A DNA stretch of 64,000 nt from NCBI GenBank assembly GCA_963763115.1, contig CAVXNM010000031.1, positions 8,865 to 72,864 on the forward strand, written 5' to 3'. Under the pieces are notes generated by a model. It did no database searches, was not told the DNA's origin, and saw only the letters and a program-made list of their open reading frames with translations. Position numbers and translations under genes: made by a program. Each line of letters begins with the position of its first letter. Within the stretch, counting starts at the first letter, position 1. This DNA is from an uncultured Gammaproteobacteria bacterium. GTDB lineage: Bacteria > Pseudomonadota > Gammaproteobacteria > UBA9214. Shown in pieces: positions 5,037 through 44,901 of this stretch.

Positions 5037-5303
5037 CAAGGATTCCGGAAACAGGCTGAAGACCGGGTCGATCCTTCAAGACATCAGTTGAATCACCCTG
5101 TCTGCTCCGGCTCACGCTTTTCCTGCATAATATGATCATGCCAACATCGCTCATATACTCATTCATGTCTTGCACGTCGTTGGCCTGAATACATTAGAAG
5201 AGTCTCCGACGTAAAAAACCCGTTATTTTCTGTACTATGAAACTGTCATTGAGTCCCGCTTTTTTCCCTCAGTGGGTTGGAATAATCCTGTAGCCCCTTC
5301 CCC

Positions 5304-6599: not shown

Positions 6600-7463
6600 T
6601 CAAACGGGAATGCGCTCAACCCGAACCTCAACCTGAAGTTCCGGCCGCGCATTCGCCGAACCCACAAAGGAGCCCGCTACCGGGGGAATGGCTTCCGGGT
6701 GGCGGTGTACCGCCACCGCGATGTGGTCACCGCTGACCACCAGGCCACTGGTGGAATCAAAACCCCGCCAGCCGGAACCCGGCAGAAACACCTCTGACCA
6801 GGCGTGGGTGGCGGTATGGCCCTGAGCCACGGCCTGGTTAAGCACGTAACCGCTTATGAAACGGCTGGCAAGACCACAATGACGACAGATCTCGATGAAC
6901 AGGGTGGCGAAGTCCCGACAGGATCCCCTGCCCGTTGACACGGTCTGTGCCGGCGTCTGGACACCGGGTTCCTCGCGCATCAGGTAGTCGAGCTGGTTAG
7001 CAATTTTGGTGTTCACCGAGTTCAGCAAGGCAATCGTATCCCCACTCGTTCCCGGAATGCAGACATCGGCGATCCAGTCCTTCAATACCGCCTGATCCTG
7101 GGAAAATATAACGCTTTGGTAAGGTGCCAGATCGATCTGTTCTGAAGGGTCGTACTGGAAGGGAAAGCTTCGCGCGCTGTCTTCGAGCACAAACTCCAGC
7201 GGGTCTTCTTCATAGTGTTCAACGACCACTTCACTGGAGATGACGAGGTCCTCGGCAGGCCGCAGGAATTCGACGACTGCAACCGAATTTCCGTAGACAT
7301 CGCGCTTCCAGCGGATCCTGAACCCGGGGCTGATCTGCAGCCTGGACGACTGCACGCGTATATCGTGACCCTCACGCGGCCTCAGATGAAGAGTATGCGG
7401 TAACAGTGTTACCGTCTCCGCGTAGTGGTAGCGTGTCAGATGCTGGATTTGAATACGGCGCAC
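6600..7463 (-). CDS. Transglutaminase-like protein (Bact_transglu_N + Transglut_core)
   Basis: IQHLTRYHY, LRPR, DVYGN, triad GSCRDFA / HAWSEVF / GFDST, PVAGSF. Confidence 0.93.
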   Translation of the reverse strand: MRRIQIQHLTRYHYAETVTLLPHTLHLRPREGHDIRVQSSRLQISPGFRIRWKRDVYGNSVAVVEFLRPAEDLVISSEVVVEHYEEDPLEFVLEDSARSFPFQYDPSEQIDLAPYQSVIFSQDQAVLKDWIADVCIPGTSGDTIALLNSVNTKIANQLDYLMREEPGVQTPAQTVSTGRGSCRDFATLFIEICRHCGLASRFISGYVLNQAVAQGHTATHAWSEVFLPGSGWRGFDSTSGLVVSGDHIAVAVHRHPEAIPPVAGSFVGSANARPELQVEVRVERIPV

Positions 7464-24764: not shown

Positions 24765-25763
24765 ATGTTGAACTGGCTGAACCGGAAGAAGTCATCCACT
24801 GCGGCGTCTGCTGCCGCGCATCCCCAGCCACCTCTTGCGAACTGGCGCAACCGGGAAAATGTCGGCCTCAGCCGAAAAACACCCCCGGGACCGGACCGGC
24901 TGCCCCATCGCAGACGTAAACTGAAGGCGCTGGAAGTATTTTCCCTCGCTGTCGTTATCTCCCTGATTATCGGCGTGGATCTCTATATTTTCGGAATCAA
25001 CAAACGCCTTAGTGTGCTGGAAAACGAGTTTGTCGAGGTCAAGACCTGGGCCTTTCCCGCCAGTCTCCTCGAAGGTAAATATGCCTCCCTGAATGCACGT
25101 GTGCGCGCATTGACCGAGGCATATTCCGGTCTGGACGCCAAACTCACCTCATTCACCACGCAGCAGCAGCCGGTTACCGTCGAGACCAGGGCTGCAGGCC
25201 ATGCGGCGATGGCGTTCACGGAAGCGAACATCCCCTCCGAGGCGCCCGCGGCAGGCAATGCGCGCCCGCCTGCCGGGACCGCGCCCGAATCTGCGGAAAC
25301 TGCCGGGCTGGTGATGAGAGAGGATGAGGAAACACCCGCCACGGGGTTCGCTCCGGTCGAGTCACCGCCAGTGGTCGCGCACGGCAAACCAGCGAGTGAC
25401 GCCAGGCTGGCGCTGCATACCGTGGAAGAAATACCGATTGTGGCATCCAGGGCGGAGCCTGCCATCCCGGTCGCCACCGCCACTGCCGCCGATTCTCATC
25501 CGCCACAGGGGAGCCTCAACGAGGGTCGCTGGGTGATCAACCTGCTGTCCGATCCGAACAAGACGCTGGCGGAACGATTCGCGGCCAGGGCACGCGACCG
25601 TGGCGTCCCCGTGGAACAGAACCGGAGCGAGGTGAAAGGTCGGGTGTTCTGGCGGGTGCAGATCACCGGTTTCGAGACGATGGGTGAAGCCCGGGCCCAT
25701 GCCGAAGAGGTCAAGACAAAACTCCGCCTGAAAGACGTCTGGATTTTCAAACAACCGGGATAA
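24765..25763 (+). CDS. Single-pass membrane protein with coiled coil, Ala/Pro linker and C-terminal SPOR domain
   Basis: TM FSLAVVISLIIGVDLYIF; C-terminal WVINLLS...FWRVQITGF..MGEARAHA...DVWI. Confidence 0.8.
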   Translation: MLNWLNRKKSSTAASAAAHPQPPLANWRNRENVGLSRKTPPGPDRLPHRRRKLKALEVFSLAVVISLIIGVDLYIFGINKRLSVLENEFVEVKTWAFPASLLEGKYASLNARVRALTEAYSGLDAKLTSFTTQQQPVTVETRAAGHAAMAFTEANIPSEAPAAGNARPPAGTAPESAETAGLVMREDEETPATGFAPVESPPVVAHGKPASDARLALHTVEEIPIVASRAEPAIPVATATAADSHPPQGSLNEGRWVINLLSDPNKTLAERFAARARDRGVPVEQNRSEVKGRVFWRVQITGFETMGEARAHAEEVKTKLRLKDVWIFKQPG

Positions 25764-25782
25764 TCGTGCCCGGCAACACTAG

Positions 25783-26044
25783 GGCCTGTCAACACGTGTA
25801 TGATCGCCGCGTTGCTGTCTGAAATCAGGCCAGGCAAGGCGCGAGGAGCGAAGTGTAGTGGTGCCAAATGGACAACGAGGAACGCCGCATGGCCTGATTT
25901 CAGGCGCAACCCGCAGGGACGGGGCCATTTTCCCGCAATCCTGCGTTAGCGCTCATGTGTGTAGCCTAACTACACGGCACTCGCGCTGCCTTGTCTTGCG
26001 AAAATATGGCCGCCGTCGCGACGACCATAACGTGTTAACAGGCC
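25783..26044. mobile_element. MITE (about 262 bp, non-autonomous; IS5-like CTAG target)
   Basis: TIRs GGCCTGTCAACACGT / ACGTGTTAACAGGCC (1 mismatch), flanked by direct CTAG (25779-82, 26045-48); no transposase. Confidence 0.85.
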
Positions 26045-26206
26045 CTAGTATGACGCCTCGAAAATAATAACCGGCTCCGGGAGCACCGACAGCGGCCGGA
26101 TGAATTGCGGTGCACTGAATAGCACCAGCCCCATGGGCAGTACCAGGCCGCTTGCGATAAGACAGAGTATGAACGTCACAGTTTGTACCAGCTCTTCGAG
26201 TTTCAT
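26045..26206 (-). CDS. Small membrane protein (53 aa), not in ORF track
   Basis: GGAG RBS, MKLEELVQTVTFILCLIASGLVLPMGLVLFSAPQFIRPLSVLPEPVIIFEASY*; one TM; stop TAG lies in the MITE target duplication. Confidence 0.6.
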   Translation of the reverse strand: MKLEELVQTVTFILCLIASGLVLPMGLVLFSAPQFIRPLSVLPEPVIIFEASY

Positions 26207-26302
26207 CACCGTATCTCCATGCCGCTCCCGTGTCGGGAGGTTTTCGGGAATACAGTGTGCGGGAGTCAGTGGCTCACTGGATGAGCCCGTAGTCGCAACG
26301 AC

Positions 26303-27277
26303 TCAATCCGCATAGCGCAAAGCCGCGGCTGTGAGCTGTTCACGCACGTGCGTGCGCAGTCGCGCCGGGGACAGAACCTCGACCTCCGGTCCGTGCCTGA
26401 GGATATCCATGAGCAGTTCATGCTCTGCGCTGTAGGGCAGTTCCAGCAGCCAGGAGCCGTCGGCTTCAAATCGCCCGCGCTGTTCCGGGTGCCACTGCTC
26501 GACAGAAACCCAGCGCGCGCGCGCCGGCGTGAAACGCAGCCGGGCCCAGCTCAGTTGCTTGCCGGCAAAGATGCCGTAGCCGCCGGCGAGTTCCGCGTCG
26601 AGACGTCGCTCGGAAACCGCTTTCGCCGTGTTCTCCAGCATCTCTGCCGTGCCGATGGCATCCACCGCGAACACACGCAAGGCATTGCGCAAATGGCACC
26701 AGGCATCGAGATACCAGTTGTCCCGATAGTGCACCAGGCGCTGCGGGGAGATCTCGCGCCGGCTCTCCGCGTCACTCGAGCGGGCGCGGTAGCGGATCCG
26801 CAAGCGCCTGCGCTTGAGGGTCGCGCTGGCCACGGTTTCGAAATGCGCCAGCTTCGTCGAGCGTGCGGCCATGTACAGGATGCGGATACGCTTGCGCACC
26901 TCATCGCCGGTGGCATTACGGCTCTCCAGCAGCGCCTCGAGACGCGCGAGCAGCGGCTGGATATGGGGCTTGAGCAGTCCGGCCCCGAGATTTGCCAGCA
27001 ACTGTTGCAGCGTTAGCAGGGCATGGATTTCCGCCGCACTGAACCAGAGCCCAGGCAGCTTGTAGCCCGACGCGCGGGGATCGGATGCATCGTAACGGTA
27101 ACCCCGCCGCACCCGGTCCCAGACGATCGGCGCATGGAGACGGTCCCTCAGGTACTCGAGATCGCGCTTGACCGTGGCCTTGGAGGTCCCCAGCGCCTCG
27201 ATCAGCGCGTCCATCGGCACGCAACGCCGTTCGCTCAGCAGCTGGTCGATTTTGTAAAAGCGTTCGGTGCGGTCCAT
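26303..27277 (-). CDS. HTH-WYL-WCX transcription regulator (PafB/DriD/YafY-like)
   Basis: MDRTERFYKIDQLL, SKATVKRDLEYLRDRL, ISPQRLVHYRDNWYLDAWCHLR, FAVDAI, EVLSPARLR. Confidence 0.95.
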   Translation of the reverse strand: MDRTERFYKIDQLLSERRCVPMDALIEALGTSKATVKRDLEYLRDRLHAPIVWDRVRRGYRYDASDPRASGYKLPGLWFSAAEIHALLTLQQLLANLGAGLLKPHIQPLLARLEALLESRNATGDEVRKRIRILYMAARSTKLAHFETVASATLKRRRLRIRYRARSSDAESRREISPQRLVHYRDNWYLDAWCHLRNALRVFAVDAIGTAEMLENTAKAVSERRLDAELAGGYGIFAGKQLSWARLRFTPARARWVSVEQWHPEQRGRFEADGSWLLELPYSAEHELLMDILRHGPEVEVLSPARLRTHVREQLTAAALRYAD

Positions 27278-27407
27278 TCAACCCCCGGCAGTTAACTTAT
27301 GGCTGCGTAGAAAAACTGGATCCCTGCATCCACGGGGATGACGTGTTCAGGGATATGTTTAATGTAAGTCTTCCTCCATAAACACCGTTTTGATGGACAG
27401 ACACTAA

Positions 27408-29251
27408 TCATGATATTCCCTCTTCACCAACCCATCCGAGTTTTTCCGAAAGCGCGGAGACCCGCTGCACGCGGCGCTGGCAGCCCTGTATAAAGGTCTG
27501 CCGTTCACCCTGGATGGTGACCCGGTTTCTGGCCCGCGTTATGCCGGTGTAAACCAGCTCGCGCGTCAGCACGGGACTCTCCGAGGATGGCAGCACCAGC
27601 AGTACTTCGTCGAACTCGGAGCCCTGACTCTTGTGCACCGTCAGGGCGTAGGCGCAGCTGTGTTCGGGCAGCTGACGAATGGAGACGCTGCGCAGCTCGT
27701 TTCCCGTGAAAGCGAACCATGCGCGCAGGCTATCGTCGGCGGCACGCCACAACAGGCCGATGTCGCCGTTGAACAGGCCCACCTCGTAATCGTTGGTCAT
27801 CACCATCACGGGTTTGCCGTGATATTCCTCACCGCCGCGTATCAGCCCGAGCGTCTGCAGCCGCTCGGCGATGCGCCGGTTGATGTCCCCCACCCCGAAG
27901 GGTCCGCCCTGTAGCGCGGCCAGCACCCGCGTCTGCTCGAAGGCCCGGAGCGCAGCGAGCACGTCGTCCGCCTGCAGGTAGCGTGCATAGCGCTCCACCG
28001 CCCAGTCAAGACAGGTGGAATTGAGGCTGCTCTCCCCCGCATCGAGCCAGGCGATATCGCAGTAGCGACCCTCCTCGAACAACCGGAACGCCGCCTCCCC
28101 TTCCCCGGCATTGATCCGGCGCGCCAGTTCGCCGATGCCGCTGTCCCCGGCAAACCGATAGCTGACCCGCAGCAGTCCCACCGCACCGGCGATGCGCAGG
28201 GACGGCGCCGCACCCGGCAGTTCCCCGCCTTCGGTTACCATGCCGAGACCTGCCAGGAAACCGAATTGCGAGTGGCTGTAGCGGATCTCCTGGCCATGAC
28301 CGGTGATATCACCGAGCACGTTGCCCGCCTCGACCGATGCCAGCTGATCGCGGTCGCCGAGCAGGATGAGACGACTTCGGGAAGGCAGCGCCTCGAACAG
28401 GTGGGCCATCAGCGGCAGGTCGATCATCGATGCCTCGTCCACCACCAGACAGTCAAGCACCAGTGGGTTATCCCGGTTGTAGCGGAATCCACTGCCGAAT
28501 TCGGCGCCCAGCAGCCGGTGCAGCGTGCTCGCCTCCTCCGGTATGCGCGCCAGTACACCGGGCGAGGTGTCGACGCGGCCCTTGCCGCCGCGAATGGCCT
28601 CCGTGAGTCGCGCCGCCGCCTTGCCGGTGGGCGCCGCCAGCTCGATATGCAGCCCCGGGTCCTGTTCCAGCAGCAGCGCCAGCACCTTCACCACGGTGGT
28701 GGTCTTGCCGGTGCCCGGCCCGCCCGAGATCACGGCAAAACGGCGGCTGACCGCGATCGCCGCCGCGATCTTCTGCCAGTCGATCGCACCGTCCTGCATT
28801 TCCCTGAACAGGCGCCGCAGGCCATCGATCAGCCGCGCTGCATCCAGCGCCGCCACGGATTCCAGACGCGCCCGCAGGGCCTCGGCCACCGTCTGTTCAT
28901 ATTGCCAGTACTTGCCGAGGTAGAGGCGCTGCCGGTCGAGGATGAGCGGTGCGTTCATGCCCGGTTTCCCCACCCAGTGCGCGCCGGCCAGCGCCTCCAG
29001 CCACTCGCCGAGGGGCGGCGCCCGGGGAAGCTCCCGCGATGCCTCGCTATCATTCCCGAACAGGGGCTGGTCTGCATACTCCGCGAGGTCCACGCAGACA
29101 TCTCCCTGCAGGTTTCGCAGGCTGACCAGCGCAGCGCTCCGGGCCAGCAGGCCATCCTCATCCACCCCACAGCCGCGCGCCACGAAGCGGGCGAAGTAAT
29201 ACGCCAGCGGGGGGAGACCGCCAGTGTCCATCAGGCGTCGCAGCAGGTCGC

Positions 29252-29255
<4 letters not shown>
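27408..29255 (-). CDS. recD: Exodeoxyribonuclease V alpha subunit
   Basis: ISGGPGTGKTT, APTGKAAARL, VVDEASMID, GDRDQLASV, NGDIG, ALTVHKSQGSEF, YTGITRAR. Confidence 0.97.
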
Positions 29256-32822
<3,567 letters not shown>

Positions 32823-32826
<4 letters not shown>

Positions 32827-35800
32827 GTCAGCGCTCCCGCGGCCAGCGCGTCGGCGTAGAACGCCTCCGCCAGCTCTGTGAATTCCGGCTGATCGATCGG
32901 CTTTCCCGCGATGCCGCGCATCACCAGCTGGACATACGCATCGTCCTTATCGCCGGGGATACCGGCGAAGTCGTTGCCGTTCCAGGCGTTGAATGCAACG
33001 CTGGACGGGTCGGCCCGGCTGCCCTGACTCACGGCGTGCATCCAGGCATAGCTCGCGCCGGGCAGCAACGGCAGCGGCCGCTGCAGTCCCTCCCGGTACC
33101 ACCGCAGGTAGCGGGCGAGGTGTACCTGCGCCTCGGCCGGGTCAAGGGTCTTCGTGAGGGTGAACTGCCCGGTCGTCCCGTGCAGGGTGCTGCATTTGTC
33201 GCCGCGAGCATCGCCGGCGCACCAGGCCAGGTGTTCCAGCCACAGCGCCAGAATATCCGGCCCCTTGAGAGCGCCCGGCCGGTAGCGCAGCAGTCCCGAC
33301 CCCCGGTAAATGTCCTTGATCTGCCCCGCGAGCCGGAACGATCCTGCCGTCTCGTCCTCGAAGAGCAGGTCGACCAGCCGCTGCTCCGGCGGATGCCCCT
33401 GGAAGGCCTCGAGCCGCCGCATCAGCGGCTGCACGTTCTGCGACTCCTGCTGCCAGGCGAGCGCGGCGAACGCCCCGTGCGGCAGGATGCCCTCGGCGCT
33501 CAACTGGCGTGCGGGAGTCGGCCGTCCCTTGAGGTAATCATCCAGCAGGCGCTGCTTCAGGGTGAAACTCCGCAGCGCATCCAGCCGAAACACCTCGTCG
33601 TCTTCGCCCGGCGCCTCCTCCCGCAGGTAGACCTGCAGGCGGGTATTGACGAAAAACCGCACCGGATGGCGTACGAAGCGCAACAGCTGCATGAGGCTGA
33701 CGGTGCGCAGGGGATCCGGCATGTCGGACAGGCGGGTGCGGTTCCAGTCCACGTCCGCCGGTTCAGGCTGCACCGGCTGCTGTAACGCCTGCGCCACGGC
33801 ACACCAGTCGCCATCGTAACTGTGCGACTCGCCGCGGTAATTGCGCGGACTGAAGGGCTGTAGCGGATGCACATGCGTCAGCCGTGCACTGAGCCTGTCC
33901 CCGGCATCGTCACCGGCAATCACGTACTGCTGGTCGATGTAATCCAGCAGTTCTCGCAGCAGCACCGAGGGCTGGCGCTCGCTGTTGTTGCGGATGTCGC
34001 GTCCGACGTAGCTGAGATAGAGGACCTGTCGTGCGCACAGCAGCGTCTCCAGAAACAGATAGCGGTCCTCGGTCCCCTTGCGCGGGTCGCCGGGACGCCA
34101 CTGCTCGCGCATCTGATCAAACTCGGCCGGCTGCTCGCGGCGCGGAAAGGCCCGGTCGTGCAGTCCCAGCACGCAGATCACCCTGAAGGGCAGACTGCGC
34201 ATGGGGCGCATGCCGCAGAAGGTCACCCCGCCGCTGAAATAGCGGCCGTGACGGGTGTGCGTGCCCAGCTGCTGCTCCAGCCAGTGACGCACCAGGGCGA
34301 TGGGCAGGGCCTCGTCCAGGCTGCCGGCCTGTCCGGCCAGATCCGCCAGGGCATCGCGGATTTTCTGTATCCGGCCCTCTTCGTCCTCGTGTTGACCGAA
34401 GAAATCATCGAGCAGGCGGCCCAGGCATTCCTGCCACTCGCCGGCGCGGCGCGGGCTGCGCAACCGCTCGGCGTAGTCAGTAAGACAGGACAACAGCCGC
34501 CAGAACCGGCCAAGTATTTCACCCCGGGCCCCATCCACGCCGGCAATCGGGGCGATGTCCTCGAACAGTTCGCCCTCGCCCAGGGCGTAGCCGCCGAACA
34601 GGCGTCGCTCGACCTGCGCCCAGGTGTTCTCCCCGGTGCCGGGCAGGCCGAACTGCCGCTTGTGCCCGCTGTTCAATCCCCAGCGCAGCCTGGCCTCGCT
34701 CAACCACTCCCGGATTTGCGCCACCGCCTCGCCGTCCAGCGCGAAGCGACCGGCCAGTTCGGGCACGTCGAGGCAGGACAGGATTTCCGTGTGACTGAAA
34801 CGGCTATGCGGCAAGTCCAGTAACTGCAGGAACACCCGCACCAGCGGATGCTCATCGCGCAGCGAAATATCCGACAGGTTCCAGGGGATGAACGGCCGCT
34901 CGGATTCCGTATCCTGTTCGAACACGGCCTCGATGTAGGGGGCATAGAGGCTGATCTCCGGCACCATGACCAGCATATCCTCGGGACGCAGCGCGGGGTC
35001 GCTGTCCAGCATCGCCAGCAGGCGGTCATGCAGCACCTGGCACTCCCGCTGTGGACTGTGACAGACGTGCACCTGCAGCGAAGCATCGCCCTCGACGGGA
35101 GTCCGCTCGCCGGGGCCCGCCATGGGGCGCAGGGTGAAAATGTCCTGCTGGAGATGCCGCAGCAGTGAATCCGTTCCGGGCGGCATGAAGACCTCTTCCT
35201 CGGTGGCCGGGGTTTCCTGCATCAGCAGCAGGTCCTGCAGGGCCTGTCCCTGTCGGCCCCAGGAGGCTAGCAGACTGTTACCCGTTTCCCACAACTCGGC
35301 GGCTTCCGGTTGCGCCAGGCGCTTGCGCGCCAGCGTCTTCTGGGACACCAGGTCCGCCCAGAACTGATCGGTTGGACTGTGCAGGTAGAGTTCGATGCGG
35401 GTATGCGCGGCAAGCGCGTGGAGCACCTCGACGAACAGCGGCGGCAGACTCGAGACGGCAAACAGGCTGACCCGCTCCGGCACGCCTGCGGGCAGACCCC
35501 TTTTCCGGAGGCGGAAGAGCAGGCACTCGGTGACGGCGAGTCGGTGACGGGTAATCCCGCGGGTCAGGCGGCGCCACAACAGCGCCTGCCACTGGCTGTC
35601 CTTCCCCGTGCCCCAGTCACGCAACTGCTCCGGCCGGTAGAACTGGTAACGATCGAAAACGTCCGCGATTCGGGCGGCAAGCTGAAACCGCTTCAGACCA
35701 CCGGCATCCTGCTGCAGGTAGTGAGCAATGGAGGCAAACGCCGGCTCTCGGATCAGCTCAGGCAGCAGTGCGTAGACCTTCCAGGTCATAACATCGGGTG

Positions 35801-36059
35801 CCAGCGGGTCGGTCCCGGGTAGATCACCGAGCAGCTCGCAGGCGAGTTGCCAGATGAACGACGCCGGCAGCGGATAGCGGTAATTGGCCGCCACCCCGTG
35901 CCGGGCGGCGAGCTGCAGGTTGACCCAGCGCGCCATGGCGGGACTCGGCGTCACCACCACCTCGGGAAGCAAGGGCGATGAAAGCGGCTGCTCTCCGAGC
36001 CGCTCGGCCAGGCGCTGCAGCAGCAACTCAACGCGATTGGATCGGCAGATATGCAGCAT
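32823..36059 (-). CDS. recC: Exodeoxyribonuclease V gamma subunit
   Basis: SNRVELL, DVFDRYQFYRP, LLASWGRQG, CHSPQRECQVLHD, PMRSLPFRVICVLGL, EDRYLFLETLL, HPLQPF. Confidence 0.97.
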
Positions 36060-36274: not shown

Positions 36275-39200
36275 TTACAGCTCGTGCACCTTGACCGGCG
36301 ACGCTGCCCCCAGCACCTGCGCCTGTTCCACAAGCCGTCGGTGGTGGGTAAACAGGATGATCTGTGTTTTCCTGGCAAGCTCGGCCAGTACGCCGAGCGT
36401 CGCCCTGGATCGCTCGTCGTCGAAATGCACCAGGATGTCATCGACGATAAACGGCATGGGCTCCGCGCTTTCCATGTACTTCTCCAGCGATGCCAGACGC
36501 AGCGCGAGGTACAGCTGATCACGGGTTCCGGAACTCATGCCTTCCACGTAGACCCGGTCATCATTGGGCCGCACACCCACAAGGACGGGTTCGTCTTTCT
36601 CGTTGAAGTCGGCGCGAAGACCGGCAAACGAGCCCTGTGTCAGCACCGCGAAGTGCTCACTGGCACGTTCCAGCAGGGGCCCCTGGTGCTGCTGGCGGTA
36701 GCGTTCGATCTCGTTCCGCAATATCCGTGAGGCCAGTTTCACGCGAACATACTGTTCCGCATTCGAGCGTATCTTCACAAGTACCGACTGCGCCTCATCG
36801 GCCAGTACCGCGGCGTCATCACCGCCATCCATCCGATCCAGTTCATTCTTCTGCTTACCCTTTGCCTCGTGCAGATCTTTTATTCGCGGCTCAAGCTCAT
36901 CGTCGATCCGGCGAGTCAGTGACTCGATCTCGCCGGGCAGCGTATCCGGATCTGCCGCATCCACCTGTGTCTCGAGTTCAGCCAGCGTCACGCCTTCAGC
37001 GATGTCCCGAAGCTCCTGCTCCAGGCTATCGATTGTGTGCTTGCAGTTCTGATACTCGTTCGATCTTTGCTCAGCCAGTTCCAGTCCCGAGGCATCACGG
37101 CACTCCGCTTCCTTGCACAATGAATCGAGTCGTTCGAGCATCGTCTTGCGGGTCGCCTCGGCTGTGTCGATGTCCTCCTGCGCCTTGCGGATCTGTTCTT
37201 CGAACTGTTGGCGACGGGTATCCTCTCTTTGCGTGTCTCTCAGCAAGCGGATGAGACGTGCTACAGCATCCTCAACCGGCACTTTTGCGATGTCGGACGC
37301 CACACGCGCCACCACGCTTGCCACTTCCTCCCGGAATGTTCTTGCCTCTGCATCGATGGCCGCGATGCGGATTTGCAGTTTGTCCGCCTCATTCTGTTTT
37401 CCGAACAGTTCTCTGACGCTATCGAGAATGGCAGTCACCTCAGCGGGCAAGGCATCAGCCCCCAACCCCAGCCCGCCGACGACCTCCTTCCACTCACCCT
37501 TCCATGTCACGAGTGCCTCGCTAGCCGCTTGCTGTTCCAGCCGTGAGCTTTCCAGCCCTTGCTCGAGTGACGATATCTCCTTGTCCAGCATCTGACGCTG
37601 CCTGGCCAGTTCATCGATCCTGTCAGCTACTGCCTCGCACTCGGCTAGTAACGCTTCGAGAGATTCCGGGGTACTGACCTCTTTCCCAAGATCCTTCAGC
37701 GCCTGCTGCAGTGACTGGATATGCAACCCCCGCGTCCTTTCCAGGATATCCATTCGCCGGCGCTGTCCGTAAAGATCCTCGATCCGGTCACGCAGCCTCT
37801 CCATATTGTCCAGCCATGCACGCATCTCCCTCGGCGGCAGTGGCTGGATAGCCGAGCGGCCCCATAAACTGGCCCAGTCTGCATCAATCTGTCGCTGTTC
37901 CCCGGCACAGTCCTCGCGCTCCCCGGCAACCTCCTCGGCACGCACCCGGGCATCTGACAGTGCTGCCAGCAGGCTGGCCTGTTTCTGCACACGTTCGGCC
38001 TCGCGTCGCAGACGGTCCGCGAGTTCATCAGCATCAGCAACCCGGAACTCGTATGCCTCAGGTAGTGCACGCTCGGGATCCAGCTCTCGCGCCTCGGTAT
38101 CGACCACCTCACCACCCAGCCACTGACGGCGTATCAGCTCCCATGCCTGCTGCCGGCCGGAACGGACTTCAAGCAGGTCCTGCTCGGTAGGAATCGAACC
38201 GGCATACTGAATCTCATCAAGCTGCTTTTGCACCTCACGCACCCTGTTCGCATGTTCTGCCTGCCTGTCATCGAGGCGCCGGGTGCGTTCAGCCACATCG
38301 GCATATGCCTGCTCAAACCGGTCAATGCTTTCACGTGGCGGCAAAGGCAAGCCTGGAATCTCGTCGAGGGTGCCTTGCCACTGGGCACTGAGTCGGGACA
38401 GGTCGTGGCGGCATGCCTGTTCAAGCATTTCATATTCATCCCGGGCTGTTCGCAGTGATTCATCCAGATTACCCTGGCGTCGGGTTAGTGCTACCTGCTT
38501 GCGCAGCGCCTCTGATGATCCCGCCTCGGCAAGCTCCATGCGTTCCTCGCGGGCCTTTTGCAAGCGTGATTCATGCTCTCGTTGCAGTTTGACGGCCTGG
38601 CGCTCACGTTCGATCAGCGCCTGTCGCTGATTTCCCAGATCCGTGATTCTGGCACCTCTCGACAGGACTGGTCGCAGTGTTTCGGCATTATCGAGGGAGA
38701 TGTCCGGACGAACCGCTTTCAGCAGGGCTTCGGTATCCGACAGCAATTGACTGCGCTCGGCCTTCCGGTGCGGACGGTCCTGCATGGCCTTGCGGTGACC
38801 ACCCAGGCGTTCATGCAGATCCTCGATAGTTTCACCAAATTCCAGTATTTCCGTGTTCACTGAAATTGCCGCGAGCTGCTTCTGCAGGCCTTCCAGAGTC
38901 CTGGTCGCACTATTTACTGTAGTGGCCGCCTTATCCAGTTCGCGGGCAGCGGTCTCACGGCGCTTGCCGAAATCTGCCGCCAGCATGACGACATCACCCA
39001 GTTCCTCAATTTTCAGCAGCAGTTCACGCCGCGCCGAGATCCTGGGCAGAGCCCGCTGGATGCGCCGCAGCCGATTTCGATCGGCCTTGGTCTGCACCAG
39101 CTCCTCTTGCAGTTGTGCCAGTTCCTTGTTGGTCCGCTCAAGGGCACGGCGCGCCTCGCCCCATTCACGCGATGACAGCGACTGGTCCTTGATAGCCTTT

Positions 39201-39779
39201 TGAAGTTGAGCATGCTCTTTCAGGGCAGCGTTGAACGTCGGCTTCGACCCCACCCGGTTTGAAGAGTTCACCGGCTTCGGTTTCCAGCTGTTCCAGCACG
39301 GCATGCAGGGCCGCACTGCCCATGGAGGCGGAAAACAGCGCCTGTCCGACCTCCCCCTTTTGCTCCAGGATTTCCTGCCCGCCCCGGACCAGTGCCTCAT
39401 GATCGATGCCGAACAGCATCTCGAACACCTCGGCGCTAACACCATGGAGAAATGGCGCCAGCGCATCGTCCACGAGCTGGCCACCGTCCGGCGACAGCAG
39501 GGTATTCTTGTTGCCCTTGCGCCTGATGATGGCGAGCTCATGGCCGTCATGGCTCCGCAATGTGCCGCCAATCCGGAGGTCCTTGTTCTCGTGCCTGAAG
39601 TTGTCGGTCGTCCGCGCAGGGATGCCGAACAGCAACGCCTTCAGACCGCGCAGCGAGGAACTCTTGCCCGCCTCATTGGGCCCGTAGACGATGTGCAGCC
39701 CGCCTCCGGGCGAGGAAAAATCCAGCAGCCGGTCGCTGAACGGGCCAAAGGCAAGCAGGTTGAGTTCCCGGATCTCCAC
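36275..39779 (-). CDS. yhaN: YhaN/SbcE-like SMC-type ATPase (AAA_27), with a +1 frameshift at about 39248-39251
   Basis: LLAFGPF, Walker A YGPNEAGKSS, long coiled coil, signature MSSGTRDQLYLALRLA, Walker B IVDDILVHFDD, LFTHH. Confidence 0.9.
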
Positions 39780-41040
39780 TATGCATCCACCTCGAACTGA
39801 CGAGACGGTGCACCAGGAGTTCCTTGATGTCCTCCATCAGGCTGGTCAGGTAGCCGGGATCGGTCGGATCGTAACGATCCTCGCCGCCCAGCAGTTCCGG
39901 CGGGAGCTTCTGGCGCAGGTCGGCTACTTCAGCGGCGAGCCCCTCGACGCCGGAAGCGTCAATCTCGAGTGCGTGGATCGCACGCAGCAACCCGCCCAGC
40001 GCATCGTCCCGTTCAAGCAGTTCGTCCATCGCGACCGCCTGGCGTGTCTCGATGGCCACCTTCTCCAGCCACATCCCCGCTCCGCCAAGGCCTGACGCGA
40101 GCGCGCGGTACTCCTGAATCCAGTGAATGCTGTCCGAGTGCAGTATTGAGTGCACCGGACTGCTGCCCTGCAAAACCAGTCTGGCGGCAACGGGGCGTGC
40201 ATCGGCATCGTCCAGCGCCTGCTGCAGTGCATCCCGCACCTGATCATAGATTTCATCGAGTGAAGCACTGTCCGTCACATCCACCGTGCACCGGGTCCAG
40301 CGCAGGACATCGAGGTCACGGTGCTCGACGGCTGCCACTTCGCCATCTGTAACGGTAACCAGCGTGCAGCCCTTCGGGCCGGTCTCACGGGCGTGACGTC
40401 CCTGGATATTGCCCGGGAACACGATCCAGGGCTCCTGGCTGACCACCTCGCGGTTGTGGACATGCCCCAGCGCCCAGTAGTGATAACCTTTGGAACGCAG
40501 GCCATCGACTGTGCAGGGCGCATAGGGTTCATGGCCCGGCTTGCCGTTCAGGCAGGTGTGCAGAAGACCAATATTGAACAGATTCGGATCCGCTTGCGGG
40601 TAGGCTCTGGAAAGGTCTTCCGTTACCTCGCACCTCGAGAAGCCCTGCCCGTGCACCGCCAGGTCCAGTTTCTCGAGCACTACGGTTTCCGGCTTGCTGG
40701 TGGAAAACAGTGTGACATTGTCCGGCAGGCGCAGCTGCCTGGTAATCTGGCTGGCCGCATCGTGGTTGCCTGCAACGATGAACACGCGGATGCCCGCCTC
40801 GCGCAGCCGTGCCATCCGCTGGATAAAATACAGCCCGGTGTTGTAATCCTTCCAGTCACCGTCGTAGAGGTCGCCGGCGAGCAGCACGAAACTGACCTCC
40901 TCCTCAATCGCCAAGTCGACCAGATTGTCGAAGGCGCGCCGCGTGGCGCCACGCAACTCCGCGACCGGTGCGCCTTCATAGCGTTCCAGGCCGTGCAGCG
41001 GGCTGTCGAGATGCACATCGGCGGCGTGGAGGAATTTCAT
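39673..41040 (-). CDS. yhaO: YhaO/SbcD/Mre11-like DNA exonuclease (metallophosphoesterase)
   Basis: HAADVHLD, AGDLYD, AGNHD, LLHT, ALGHVH, PGNIQGRH; the 3' end overlaps yhaN by 107 bp and may be extended by an indel. Confidence 0.93.
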   Translation of the reverse strand: MKFLHAADVHLDSPLHGLERYEGAPVAELRGATRRAFDNLVDLAIEEEVSFVLLAGDLYDGDWKDYNTGLYFIQRMARLREAGIRVFIVAGNHDAASQITRQLRLPDNVTLFSTSKPETVVLEKLDLAVHGQGFSRCEVTEDLSRAYPQADPNLFNIGLLHTCLNGKPGHEPYAPCTVDGLRSKGYHYWALGHVHNREVVSQEPWIVFPGNIQGRHARETGPKGCTLVTVTDGEVAAVEHRDLDVLRWTRCTVDVTDSASLDEIYDQVRDALQQALDDADARPVAARLVLQGSSPVHSILHSDSIHWIQEYRALASGLGGAGMWLEKVAIETRQAVAMDELLERDDALGGLLRAIHALEIDASGVEGLAAEVADLRQKLPPELLGGEDRYDPTDPGYLTSLMEDIKELLVHRLVSSRWMHSGDPGTQPACLWPVQRPAAGFFLARRRAAHRLRAQ

Positions 41041-41103
41041 GAGAAAAAGCCTTAAATAATTAACGTATGATACTGTTAATCATACTTATATGATAAAACT
41101 TTA

Positions 41104-42153
41104 CCTGATTAGCGATAAACCTCAGCCAGGCTCACGGGGTGAGCCACTGGGGTTCGTAAACTAGCCCCATGGTAGGTTTAAGAGGAGCAATACCATGGCG
41201 ATGAATCGAATCCAATTCCAACCCGGGCTGAGTCTTACGGAATTCCTGGAGCAATACGGTACGGAGGAACACTGCGAGCAGGCGCTGGAGCTGGCCCGCT
41301 GGCCAAACGGTTTTCGCTGCGAGAACTGCGCAAGCACGCACTACTGTATCGTGAACGCCCGCGGCCGCAAGACCTATCAGTGCCATCACTGCCACCACCA
41401 GAGCACGCTCAAAGCCGGCACGATCTTTCATGCCTCTAAGTTGCCGCTGGTGCGCTGGTTTCAGGCCATGTATCTGATGAGCCAGTCGAAAAACAACATC
41501 TCGGGCCTCGAACTGAAGCGTCAGCTGGGGGTGTGTTACCGCACCGCCTGGCTGGTCAAGCACAAACTGATGCAGGTCATGCGTGAACGCGAAGCCGACG
41601 GCGTCCTGAGCGGGCGAGTGATCGCCGACGATGCCTACCTGGGCGGTGAGCGGCGCGGAAAGCGCGGGCGCGGCTCGGAAAATAAGGTACCCTTCATTGC
41701 GGCGGTCGAGGTCGATGACGCGGATCGTCCGATGCGCGTGCGTTTTGATCGGGTCGAGGGCTTTTGCTCGGAGGCGGTCAGCGCCTGGGCCAGGCAGCAT
41801 CTGGCGCCCCAGAGTAGCGTGGTCTCGGATGGTCTGGCGTGTTTTGCCGCCGTCGCGACCGCGGGCTGCCAGCATGAGCCCCAGGTGGTTGGTGCTACGC
41901 GCCGCAGTACCGATATGCCCTGCTTTAGCTGGGTTAATACCCTGCTGGGCAACCTGAAAACCGCCTTGAGTGGTACCTATCATGCGTTCAATTTTGCAAA
42001 ATATGCCGACCGTTATCTCGCTGAGTACCAGTACCGCTTCAATCGACGCGTTAACCTCAAGACCATGCTGCCCCGTTTGCTGCGGGCCGCGGCGACAACC
42101 GGCAGTCGCCCTGAGGCCTGGTTGAGAATGGCTGAGCTTCATCGCTAATCAGG
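41104..42153 (+). mobile_element. Complete IS1595-family insertion sequence (1050 bp)
   Basis: 25-bp TIRs CCTGATTAGCGAT(A/G)AA(C/G)CTCAGCCA at 41104-28 and 42129-53; 8-bp TSD AAACTTTA at 41096-103 and 42154-61. Confidence 0.96.
41195..42148 (+). CDS. IS1595-family transposase (ISSod11/ISXo-like)
   Basis: Zn ribbon CENC...CHHC, GTIFH, ADDAYLGG, SDGLACF, EYQYRFNRR. Confidence 0.96.
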   Translation: MAMNRIQFQPGLSLTEFLEQYGTEEHCEQALELARWPNGFRCENCASTHYCIVNARGRKTYQCHHCHHQSTLKAGTIFHASKLPLVRWFQAMYLMSQSKNNISGLELKRQLGVCYRTAWLVKHKLMQVMREREADGVLSGRVIADDAYLGGERRGKRGRGSENKVPFIAAVEVDDADRPMRVRFDRVEGFCSEAVSAWARQHLAPQSSVVSDGLACFAAVATAGCQHEPQVVGATRRSTDMPCFSWVNTLLGNLKTALSGTYHAFNFAKYADRYLAEYQYRFNRRVNLKTMLPRLLRAAATTGSRPEAWLRMAELHR

Positions 42154-42569
42154 AAACTTTATAACGCTTTGTGTAGGAGCTGATTTGCCCGCAAATCGGT
42201 TGAGTGACAAGCGTCGACTCGCGGGCGAGCACGTGTCTACAGATAGATTCACCAGTTATTTCGAGGAATTCGCCGTTCCTGTGGCTTCTATCAGTGCTGA
42301 AAATCGGATATTGCAATCCTTGCATAGTGAGTGGCTCACCAAGTGAGCCTGACTATAACCGATCGGGTGCAGGCTGACAGGAAAACACGACCGGCCAGGC
42401 AGGCGCCGTAAATTAAGGCGCATTCTGATAAATCAGACCTAACCCCTTGATAGCCACCTCTCTGACCGAACGCAGGGCCAGAAAGTATCGGTCCGCGAAA
42501 TAACACGCCGGATGACAACCGCTGTCGGAGTACCGGTGAACCGGCAATGACCTACGCCCCGATGTCGCA

Positions 42570-44822
42570 TCAGAGCGGTCGTTCGACCGACGGCTTGCGC
42601 CTGCGTTTCCCCGTCCCCTGATGACCGGCTTTCCCGCTGCCTTCCTGCCAGGGCGGCAGGCCGGTATGCTGGGTCAGCAGCGCCCCCTTGAGGCGTCGTT
42701 GATGCGCCTGCCCGGAGTTCTTGCGGCGCGGTGCCCGGTAGTCCTTCCTTTCGTTTGGCCGTTCGTGCGGTATCAGCTGGTGGGGACCATCGCCGATCAG
42801 GTCGGCACGACCCATCGCCAAGAGCGCTTCGCGCAGCAGCGGCCAGTGCTGCGGATCGTGGTAGCGCAGGAACGCCTTGTGCAGCCTGCGACGCCATGCA
42901 TCCTTGACGACATCCACTCCCTCGCTCTTGTAACGCACCCGGTGCAGCGGATTCCTGCCCGAGTGGTACATGGCCGTCGCGGTGGCCATGGGCGAGGGAT
43001 AGAACGCCTGCACCTGATCGGCGCGGAAGCCGTTGCGCCTCAGCCAGAGGGCCAGGTTGACCATATCCTCGTCGAGCGTGCCCGGATGGGCGGCGATGAA
43101 ATACGGGATCAGGTACTGCTCCTTGCCGGCCTCGGCGGAGTATTTCTCGAACAGCCGCTTGAAGGCGTCATAGGCGCCGACTCCCGGCTTCATCATCATC
43201 GACAGGGGACCTTCCTCGGTATGCTCCGGCGCAATTTTCAGGTAACCACCGACGTGGTGGGTGACCAGTTCCTTCACATACTCCGGGTCGCGCACCGCGA
43301 GATCGTAGCGCAGCCCGGAGGCGATCAGGACCTTTTTGACGCCAGGGAGGCGACGGGCTTCCCGATAGAGCCGCGTAAGCGCGGAATGATCGGTATCGAG
43401 ATTCGGACAGATGCCCGGATAGACGCAGCTTGGCTTGCGGCAGGCGGCCTCGATGTCACGGCTCTTGCAGGCGATGCGGTACATGTTGGCGGTGGGGCCG
43501 CCGAGGTCGGAGATGACACCGGTGAAACCCGGGACCTTGTCGCGGATGTCCTCGATTTCCCGCAGGATCGAGTCCTGCGAACGGTTCTGGATGATGCGGC
43601 CCTCGTGCTCGGTGATGGAACAGAAGGTGCAGCCGCCGAAGCAGCCGCGCATGATATTGACCGAGAAGCGGATCATCTCCCAGGCCGGGATGTTCTCGCC
43701 CCGGTAGCGGGGGTGGGGCACGCGCGCGAACGGCATGCCGAACACGTAGTCCATTTCCGCGGTGCTGAGCGGAATCGGCGGCGGATTCAGCCAGATATCG
43801 ACCGGGCCGTGCTGCTGCACCAGCGCACGGGCATTGCCGGGATTGGTTTCGAGATGCAGCACCCGGCTGGCGTGGGCATAGAGCACGGCATCGTTGCGCA
43901 CTTTCTCGAACGAGGGCAGGCGGATCACGGTGTGCGCGCGCGCCAGTCGTGGCCGGGGCGGCGGAACCAGCGGTGAACCGTGTTCGTCGAACCCGGCGCC
44001 ATAGCCGGCGCTGGTACGCCTTTCCCGCTCGCAGGCATCCATCGCCTGGGTGTTGACATAGGGGTTGATGATGCTGTCGATCCTGCCCGGGCGGTCGATG
44101 CGTGTGGAATCGACTTCCCACCAGTCCGCGGGGGTGTCGCGGCGGATGAGGGCGGTGCCGCGCACATCGGTAATTTCCGCGATGGGTTCGCCGCGCGCGA
44201 GGCGGTGAGCCAGTTCCACCACGGCCCGTTCGGCGTTGCCGTAGAGCAGAATGTCGGCGCCGGCGTCCACCAGCAGTGAACGGCGCACCGTATCCTGCCA
44301 GTAATCATAGTGGGCGATGCGCCGCAGCGAGGCCTCGATGCCGCCCAGCACGAGCGGCACATCCGGCCAGGCTTCCCGGCAGCGCTGCGCATAGGCCAGC
44401 GAACAGCGATCCGGGCGCTTCCCGGCGCGCCCGCCGGGGGTGTAGGCATCGTCGGAACGGGGTTTGCGCTCCGCGGTATAGCGGTTGATCATCGAGTCCA
44501 TGTTGCCGGCGGTTACGCCGAAGAAGATATTCGGCCGACCGAGTACCTCGAACGCCGCTTTCGAATGCCAGCCCGGCTGGGCGATGATGCCGACCCGGAA
44601 CCCCTGGGCCTCCAGCAGCCGCCCGACGATGGCCATGCCGAAGGACGGGTGATCGACGTAGGCGTCGCCCGTGACGAGGATGATGTCGCAGGAATCCCAG
44701 CCCAGCGTATCCATTTCCGCACGGCTCATGGGCAGGAACGGGGCGCTGCCAAAACACTCGGCCCAGTACTTCGGGTAATCGAACAGGGCGGTGCGGACGG
44801 CGGGAATGGCGACAGCTGACAT
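42570..44822 (-). CDS. ygiQ: YgiQ/UPF0313 radical SAM protein
   Basis: [32 protein letters not shown] (CxxxCxxC), [24 protein letters not shown]. Confidence 0.96.
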
Positions 44823-44901
44823 GGATTGATCCGGGTTCAGGGGCACCAGTGTAGCGAAAATGCCACCGCTTGACATGCCGCATCGCGCCGGGCCGGGCGC
44901 C

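Follow-up and report, generated by a model that had tools for sequence, protein, structure and literature searches.

In a 64-kb stretch of DNA from an uncultured gammaproteobacterium (contig CAVXNM010000031.1; the whole stretch is called the window below), a gene for a WYL-domain regulator is followed on the minus strand by a palindromic promoter and by a short open reading frame (ORF) for a single-pass membrane protein of 53 amino acids (aa). On balance we favour the reading that these three parts form a self-contained cassette of sensor and output, in which the WYL protein would act as an activator by the mechanism described below. The sequence comparisons support well that the WYL protein would act at the palindrome with the small ORF as its local output. 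The palindrome is a well-supported predicted operator of the WYL clade, being specifically and strongly associated with its genes and oriented toward their cargo. The original prediction had paired the two genes as regulator and effector and had tied them to RecBCD; the pairing stands, with a conserved gene pair and a palindromic promoter between its members, while the tie to RecBCD is only partly retained (see below).

The small membrane protein gene and its promoter

The small ORF is a real gene under purifying selection. Its homologues, equal in length and position, were found by tblastn and profile searches in four genera of the family. The profile search of 5.8 billion clustered proteins gave a family of 35 members, and HMMER, run exhaustively on 1.84 billion representatives, gave 16 representative clusters. 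Nearly all matches have 51-54 residues, the exceptions being fragments, read-through extensions and one unrelated repetitive protein of 267 aa. Outside this narrow family of about 53 aa, neither of the two profile searches found relatives, and there is no match in Pfam, NCBIfam or PADLOC. More than 25 distinct genus-level variants are all 52-53 codons long and none of them is frameshifted, and the ratio of nonsynonymous to synonymous substitution (dN/dS) within the genus is 0.20-0.35, compared with 0.21 for the WYL gene. With homologues of constant length and a purifying dN/dS, a reading frame that arose by chance does not account for the small ORF.

The AlphaFold2 model of the small protein has one helix (residues 3-35) and a flexible tail, with a mean pLDDT of 81. 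The N-terminal pattern M-[KT]-x-E-E-[FL]-x-Q leads into a hydrophobic stretch with C15 and V-L-P-x-G-L, and the C-terminal part consists of a variable Ser/Ala/Pro linker and the pattern P-V-[FI]-[IV]-F-[ED]. The good ribosome-binding site (RBS) claimed for the gene is present as GGAG 8 nt 5' of the ATG at 26206, and a GTG stands one codon upstream of this ATG. The small ORF was seen in five contexts, and in all of them it lies 3' of a WYL gene, or of what remains of one, and reads in the same direction; conservation downstream of WYL genes had been proposed as a check on the pair, and the pair is indeed kept across genera.

The spacer between the two genes (26207-26302), for which the original prediction had proposed a binding assay with ssDNA, contains a palindrome found across the clade, GGCTCA-N5-TGAGCC, as predicted operator. 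Every locus with the small-ORF family has this palindrome, either after the WYL stop codon or before divergent cargo. The aligned promoter block reads GGCTCATCC(A/T)GTGAGCC, ACTG plus 7 nt, C(A/T)(T/C)ACT, a hairpin CTCCCG-N3-CGGGAG and the RBS, and the 10-mer AGTGGCTCAC is present in exactly one copy in nearly every locus of the subclade, just past the WYL stop codon.

For the enrichment, we counted GGCTCA-N5-TGAGCC with one mismatch allowed, within 150 nt of WYL gene ends and elsewhere. It turned out that in 80 loci from GTDB the 25 kb near WYL genes contain 48 palindromes and the remaining 584 kb contain 21. The enrichment is thus 51-fold, and a site is present at 40 of the 80 loci. An independent metagenome set of 80 loci gave 36 occurrences in 25 kb and 35 in 407 kb (17-fold; 34 of 80 loci). 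No palindrome was found at the distant cas-linked WYL genes of 40-47% identity. Among the 20 sites that lie downstream of WYL genes, 18 have a hexamer of the form [CT]AnnnT at 10-11 nt past the palindrome, where chance would give about 12%. For palindromes upstream of WYL genes, most have the hexamer on the far side, with the promoter pointing away from the WYL gene and toward the cargo.

In the window the -35 position reads ATCCAG, with one of six matches to the -35 hexamer. A scan of 25700-27600 with the sigma-70 consensus gave no promoter-like site, which fits an activator-dependent promoter and is by itself uninformative. The terminator-like hairpin at 26000-26028 closes a predicted transcript of about 250 nt, and the interval from the WYL gene to the small ORF has no terminator-like site. 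As a whole this transcript is not unusually structured (z = -0.7), and no known RNA family was found in 25600-27600 with Rfam at E<=1. Outside the ends of an insertion sequence (IS), the palindrome before the small ORF is the sole copy in the window's genome. A dispersed regulon in this genome was rejected, as the palindrome is confined to the small ORF promoter and the IS ends. An autoregulatory palindrome upstream of the WYL gene was rejected as well, since none was found in a spacer that is poorly conserved even within the genus.

The same promoter stands before other genes in other lineages. Cargo was assigned in a promoter-anchored analysis, in GC-rich loci from simple ORF rules and Pfam spot checks. 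At many loci small hydrophobic ORFs of 21-68 aa begin 41-49 nt after the palindrome, and several families of them are conserved between loci. As cargo, recC-recB occurs in two Burkholderiales metagenome-assembled genomes (MAGs) after a small transmembrane (TM) ORF, MVQPELFEIFDVSALVPMAVFLLWWVLGD, and addB-addA-like genes in six loci after a conserved small ORF family of about 45 aa with the pattern M-E-x-x-S-x-LGDRAV-IA...GAEP. An SbmA-like ABC transporter follows a small ORF of 21-37 aa, M..PD.VVFWATTGLS, in loci of Rhodocyclaceae type, and further cargo includes cas3, ARPP-1, DUF4258, a DnaQ-type exonuclease and HD-domain proteins. Resection enzymes are the immediate cargo in at least two unrelated arrangements, besides the recBCD adjacency in the window's genus (g1), and this is above chance by a rough estimate, in which about 0.1 case would be expected with a random genome draw. 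The first cistrons themselves have 29 aa before recC-recB and about 44-48 aa before addB-addA, where they share the motif LGDRAV-IA...GAEP; these first-cistron families, which have a single TM helix and differ from that of the window, were seen in L053/L054 (~5065-5155), L084, L150, L157, L161, L175 and L204 (just after the palindrome).

The WYL regulator and its proposed mode of action

The regulator is encoded by the only WYL-domain gene in the 4.0-Mb assembly. In Pfam its N-terminal winged helix (residues 9-61) matches HTH_DeoR with 24.6 bits and HTH_11 with 24.3 bits, followed by WYL (PF13280; 81.2 bits, residues 145-213) and WCX (PF25583; 60.5 bits, residues 244-319). The PADLOC model "WYL, CAS-associated signaling" is matched with 1e-41. 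The best sequence matches in PDB are PafBC (4e-18) and PafC (2e-15), and weaker ones are CapW (7e-5), the C-domain of DriD (1e-4) and BrxR (0.08). At least 572 relatives were found among GTDB representative genomes, the best 80 of which share 54-64% identity and belong to Rhodocyclaceae, Thiobacillaceae, Gallionellaceae, Burkholderiales, Sedimenticola, Acidiferrobacterales and others.

WYL regulators that sense single-stranded DNA (ssDNA) are known as the alternative to LexA, with PafBC in Actinobacteria and DriD in Alphaproteobacteria. Phage defence is likewise gated by such regulators (CapW, BrxR). PafBC promoters have no -35, and their motif immediately precedes a TAnnnT -10. In Caulobacter, driD and didA are not known to be linked. 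TisB, DinQ and SidA are short hydrophobic inner-membrane peptides made on DNA damage under the control of LexA; of these, TisB and DinQ act as type I toxins paired with antisense RNAs. PafBC is described as an ssDNA-triggered activator (PMC11804915). The DriD site, ATACGAC-N7-GTCGTAT, covers the place of an absent -35, and its distance to the -10 is constant (PMC13004042). DidA, which has 71 aa and a single TM helix, binds FtsN at the SPOR domain (PMC4211646). CapW senses ssDNA, and its zeocin induction falls in a recB mutant (PMC11662680). The original prediction had taken the dependence of DriD on AddAB as established; it is proposed and not shown in PMC9186387, whereas a recB dependence is shown for CapW (PMC11662680), so the precedent for RecBCD-derived ssDNA as a signal is the CapW result and not DriD.

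Compared with these systems, the window regulator shares the winged helix-turn-helix (wHTH), WYL and WCX domains of DriD, and its candidate operator likewise takes the -35 position at a fixed distance to the -10, with no -35 hexamer. The operator itself is different, GGCTCA-N5-TGAGCC and not ATACGAC-N7-GTCGTAT, and unlike driD and didA the WYL gene and its predicted target are neighbours that travel together as a cassette. The idea that the regulator is an orthologue of DriD did not hold up, as the match has E values of 1.3e-4 to 3.7e-4, covers only the C-terminal half and comes with another operator. The output resembles DidA in class only, both being small and, in the window by prediction, single-pass proteins of the membrane. 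The profile searches, in which DidA itself was not compared, detected no relatives beyond the narrow family, so that any kinship with DidA would have to be too remote for HMMER. The small protein is likewise similar to TisB, DinQ and SidA as a short hydrophobic membrane peptide, with no similarity in sequence. No antisense partner or LexA box was seen in the window cassette, no search aimed at them having been made.

PafBC and PafC are the closest in sequence, but PafBC is a heterodimer or a fusion of two WYL proteins and has a genome-wide regulon, whereas the window has one gene, presumably for a homodimer, and a single operator outside the IS. CapW and BrxR share the domain plan, the position of the gene beside the controlled operon and the palindromic site, and relatives of the window regulator lie beside cas, ARPP-1 and DUF4258. 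Unlike CapW and BrxR, to which the similarity is weak, the window regulator faces a promoter without -35, which points to activation, and a cargo consisting only of the 53-aa membrane protein; no defence gene is in the window cassette, though relatives adjoin cas3, ARPP-1 and DUF4258. For the ssDNA pocket, we aligned the 11 contact positions listed for DriD (Y168, S172, R176, R178, Y192, K202, R204, W206, R207, Y240 and R288; PMC9186387), and 8 of 11 are kept or conservatively replaced (Y163, S167, R174, Y189, R201, F203, F237 and H286).

In the proposed mechanism, a dimeric wHTH-WYL-WCX factor would bind GGCTCA-N5-TGAGCC where a -35 would otherwise lie, with a weak -10 following after 10-11 nt. 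Loading of the WYL/WCX pocket with ssDNA, which may come from RecBCD-processed breaks or from foreign DNA, would recruit RNA polymerase to this promoter without -35, as with DriD and PafBC. The result would be a monocistronic mRNA of about 250 nt that carries a 5' hairpin, the RBS, 53 codons and an intrinsic terminator. The small protein would then be made only under DNA stress. More speculatively, it might slow growth or division at the inner membrane, by analogy with DidA, SidA, TisB and DinQ. On the same speculative footing, we take the small membrane ORFs that precede recCB or addBA behind such promoters elsewhere as a sign that the clade may serve a response to DNA ends that does not need LexA, in which a small membrane protein would be a recurring first product. 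We infer that ssDNA from DNA-end processing is the signal from the family of the regulator, the conservation of its pocket and the cargo spectrum, and a brake on growth or division at the level of the membrane is the most economical guess for the small protein, since the window transcript has no other product.

The main rival is a repressor of CapW or BrxR type that would leave the promoter on ssDNA from phage or damage, with the small protein as the effector left over, for example a membrane-disrupting abortive-infection peptide, from a decayed ARPP-1 system. We take it seriously and consider it unlikely. The PADLOC match (1e-41) agrees with it, and so do the nearest relatives, whose WYL-ARPP-1-DUF4258-small operons adjoin genes for ADP-ribosylglycohydrolase and DSP phosphatase, and the more distant ones beside cas genes; the cassette is also patchy and indel-like, with frequent pseudogenes. 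In loci of L057 type, moreover, a second palindrome stands immediately after the CATAAT -10 of the WYL gene's own promoter, a repressor-like position that looks like autorepression. However, the cargo promoter has no -35 and a modest -10, as dependence on an activator predicts, PafBC and PafC, which are activators, match best and well ahead of CapW and BrxR, and repair operons, recCB and addBA, are among the cargo in other lineages. What favours the activator mode is that the promoter lacks a -35 and has a geometry like that of PafBC and DriD. In either mode, loading of the WYL domain would lead to production of the small protein.

Cassette contexts, apparent ARPP-1 ancestry and the insertion sequence

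The small ORF and its WYL gene occur in several arrangements. The WYL gene is directly followed by the small ORF in genus g1 (window, G003, L047, L147 and L148) and in L049, and a TetR gene precedes this pair in genus g3 (L019 and L044-46). Genus g6 (L020) has WYL-ARPP-1-small, and genus g4 (L041 and L043; L050 and L051 partial) has WYL-ARPP-1-DUF4258-small. In L040 and L042 the WYL gene is followed by no more than 17 codons of a deleted ARPP-1 gene, then by the small ORF, the gene of a 162-aa protein (p162) and RmuC; the ARPP-1 remnant is fused in frame to the small ORF (235-444 in L040 of G028; 7951-8159 in L042). The promoter block leads into ARPP-1 in L020, L040 and L042, and in G051 it faces ARPP-1 in the spacer between divergent WYL and ARPP-1 genes. 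The ARPP-1 operon of G012 has ADP-ribosylglycohydrolase and DSP phosphatase neighbours.

The 162-aa protein of G028, whose N-terminus reads M..NKLIPSLREQFRLDWRGIHGVSHWARV, was located in L034/L040 (572-1060) and L020 (2377-2706). It has no Pfam match, its stretch FLHD..R..DGHDPEHG is HD-like by eye, and its gene lies 3' of the small ORF in the operons of g4 and g6. The gene is absent from the window. In L042 the small ORF and the downstream 162-aa gene are intact despite the frameshift in the WYL gene.

The window cassette shares its small-ORF family and promoter with the g4 and g6 operons of the ARPP-1 (PF20208) systems associated with ADP-ribosylglycohydrolase (ARG) and rhodanese-phosphatase, and unlike them it has no ARPP-1, ARG or phosphatase gene; a tblastn search of the window with ARPP-1 found none in the cassette. 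What is left of ARPP-1 in the window is the promoter, the leader and a remnant of 4 codons. The stop codon of this mini-ORF overlaps the start codon of the small ORF (TGATG). Since the mini-ORF is at the start position of ARPP-1, the small ORF would have inherited the promoter and leader of ARPP-1 after a deletion, and the cassette is apparently a reduced form of a WYL/ARPP-1(/DUF4258)/small-ORF operon. Weak tblastn matches of ARPP-1, p162 and p113 at 42.2-42.9 kb were rejected as noise inside a large ORF (42570-44876) beside the IS.

In the same-genus genome G001, recD and the SPOR gene are convergent and about 72 bp apart, and homology to the window stops at ~25775 and resumes at ~27410. This empty site indicates that the WYL gene and the small ORF make up a variable cassette of about 1.6 kb and that the SPOR adjacency is older. 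Since that adjacency is older than the cassette, it provides no evidence for an FtsN-like target. Decay hits every component: the WYL gene has a frameshift in L042 and an internal deletion in L043, and in G076 a frameshift interrupts the small ORF. An accessory module for stress or conflict accounts better than a core checkpoint for the patchy spread, the ARPP-1 ancestry and the many decayed copies.

The same history could be read as that of a decaying ARPP-1 operon, of which the small ORF would be a remnant without a function of its own in the window's genus. The mini-ORF vestige at the ARPP-1 start position, the independent loss of ARPP-1 in G028 and L042 with 17 codons left, and the broken WYL, ARPP-1 or small ORFs in several contigs are in line with it. 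We nevertheless find it improbable, as the small ORF has a dN/dS of 0.20-0.35, close to that of the WYL gene, its more than 25 variants all keep 52-53 codons with no frameshift, the promoter, RBS and terminator are intact, and the WYL-small pair is kept in genus g3 and in L049, where the context is different.

Much less probable is a leader peptide, that is, small hydrophobic ORFs that regulate the downstream cargo and have no activity of their own. The constant distance of 41-49 nt after the palindrome and the position directly before recC, addB or an ABC transporter elsewhere would suit this role. In the window, however, only a terminator and a convergent gene follow, and since the small ORF is the sole product of its transcript there, a leader role is unlikely; a conserved C-terminal motif and a membrane helix are also unusual in leader peptides.

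The IS mentioned above is an IS1595-family element (41100-42345) with a transposase gene at 41195-42148 (+) encoding DDE_Tnp_IS1595 and a zinc ribbon, and the genome has three identical copies. Its ends carry GGCTCAC-N3-GTGAGCCACT at 41129-41145 and 42333-42349, and at the left end the palindrome, 11 nt, TAAACT and the transposase start follow one another in the geometry of the WYL-dependent promoters. The genome G002 has a 93%-identical copy with the same end, and no WYL gene was found in it. The likeness may reflect mimicry, common origin or coincidence. A reading of the palindrome as a repeat of IS or REP type with no relation to the WYL protein, bound by the transposase or a host factor and placed by history, is hardly credible. 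In its favour, both ends of the element (41.1-42.35 kb) have the palindrome, the left one with the same spacing of 11 nt to TAAACT, and G002 has the IS with no WYL gene detected. Against it, the site is fixed relative to WYL genes at 54-68% identity (about 74 of 160 loci, many families, 17- to 51-fold enrichment), the related transposases of G037 and G045, at 52-56% identity, have no palindrome, and no IS genes flank the WYL loci.

Several observations weigh against the reading of an ssDNA-activated sensor-output cassette. An operator within the promoter fits a repressor of CapW/BrxR type equally well, and the -10 of the window (CACACT) is weak. Three of the 11 ssDNA contacts of DriD are not kept, the equivalents of R176, K202 and R207 being E, A and A. 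No palindrome was found upstream of the window's WYL gene, and the recBCD genes of the window are not downstream of the WYL promoter. The closest relatives are in operons of conflict type (ARPP-1, DUF4258, cas), and the trigger could be phage instead of damage to the chromosome. The palindrome with the same spacing in IS1595-family ends, including those of a genome with no WYL gene detected, is not exclusive to WYL. Finally, the metagenome contigs L042 and L043 have a broken WYL gene and an intact small ORF and G076 has the reverse, so the pair is not strictly co-dependent.

Neighbouring genes and wider meaning

From ORFs with Pfam and NCBIfam matches, the order on the minus strand of the window is recC, recB, recD, the WYL gene and the small ORF (Table 1). 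The layout given by the original prediction, recD, 130 bp, WYL gene, 96 bp and a 53-aa ORF convergent on a SPOR gene, is exact in order, coordinates and distances.

Table 1. Features of the cassette and its surroundings in the window
Feature	Position	Strand	Remarks
recC	32823-36059	-	RecC Pfam matches
recB	29252-32826	-	split in two overlapping frames in the window
recD, last gene of recC-recB-recD	27408-29255	-	TIGR01447 515 bits; RecD_N, AAA_19, UvrD_C_2
recD-WYL spacer, 130 bp	27278-27407	-	AT-rich
WYL regulator gene, 324 aa	26303-27277	-	HTH + WYL + WCX
WYL-small ORF spacer, 96 bp	26207-26302	-	holds palindrome, hexamer and 5'-UTR (untranslated region) hairpin
17-bp palindrome GGCTCATCCAGTGAGCC, GGCTCA-N5-TGAGCC	26271-26287	.	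proposed WYL operator, centred at about -32 from the inferred start
-10-like hexamer CACACT	26254-26259	-	11 nt after palindrome; inferred transcription start near 26247
5'-UTR hairpin CTCCCG-ACA-CGGGAG	26225-26239	-	common to the ARPP-1 leader of relatives
Mini-ORF ATG GAG ATA CGG TGA	26206-26220	-	at ARPP-1 start position of relatives (L020, L040, L042)
Small ORF, 53 aa, single-pass membrane protein MKLEELVQTVTFILCLIASGLVLPMGLVLFSAPQFIRPLSVLPEPVIIFEASY	26045-26206	-	ATG 26206, stop codon 26045-26047
Terminator-like hairpin, 11-bp stem, loop GAC, then AUUUUC	26000-26028	-	3' of small ORF
SPOR-domain membrane protein gene	24765-25763	+	PF05036, 30 bits; convergent with small ORF; outside the unit
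Cassette segment missing from same-genus G001	25776-27409	.	comparison with G001

The adjacency of recD and the WYL gene was seen only in genus g1, and recD-WYL as a conserved unit was rejected, being limited to same-genus loci with an empty site in G001. No RecD match was found at E<=1e-40 in G006, G012, G028 and G076 of other genera, in contrast to genus g1, and within the family RecBCD may be restricted to this genus. The proposed link to RecBCD therefore survives only in part. The adjacency is a feature of one genus, with an indel of about 1.6 kb, and the three genes are no conserved unit, while recC-recB and addB-addA are driven by the same type of promoter elsewhere.

In the recD-WYL spacer (27278-27407) neither a terminator-like site nor the GGCTCA palindrome was found, and within the genus only the last ~45 nt, with the RBS GGGGG, are kept. 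This spacer varies more than anything else in the locus. In L047 (~6790-6900) it is filled by an inverted repeat of about 35 bp, ATTACCCGATTATCACAGAAAACCAGCCATACGACG and its reverse complement, with no counterpart in the window or G003.

The two recB frames, 31666-32826 and 29252-31843, overlap at 31666-31866, and the close relative L047 has an intact RecB of 1189 aa. The split is either an assembly error of the MAG or a recent pseudogene, and if it is real, the RecBCD adjoining the cassette would be defective. Immediately before recC, in the same orientation (36275-41040, -), are genes for a 455-aa SbcD-like metallophosphoesterase and a 1098-aa coiled-coil ATPase, the latter SbcC/YhaN-like with a weak SMC_N match, so that the same gene string holds a second pair for DNA-end processing. 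The genome of the window also encodes LexA.

In the literature searched we found no description of this clade or its operator under WYL with small membrane proteins, ARPP-1, or WYL with RecBCD or AddAB, and no WYL equivalent of Beta- or Gammaproteobacteria with an operator, promoter design and regulon. We put forward, as a speculation that we ourselves rate as rather doubtful, that the clade of at least 570 relatives in Beta- and Gammaproteobacteria might represent a so far undescribed LexA-independent response to DNA ends. It would be activated by ssDNA, with GGCTCA-N5-TGAGCC replacing the -35 and a small membrane protein as the first cistron, followed by recCBD/addBA or other DNA-targeting systems, and the small proteins, which fall into several families without relation to one another and include that of the window, would form a checkpoint arm that links break processing with the envelope or divisome. 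As a side possibility, the IS1595-family element may tie the expression of its transposase to the same signal through the same operator.

For the family, the locus offers a minimal testable example, with one regulator, one 17-bp site and one output of 53 aa. If the small proteins are damage-induced brakes on growth or division, the principle of DidA and SidA would extend well beyond Caulobacter, and the recurrent unannotated microproteins that adjoin WYL genes would be explained.

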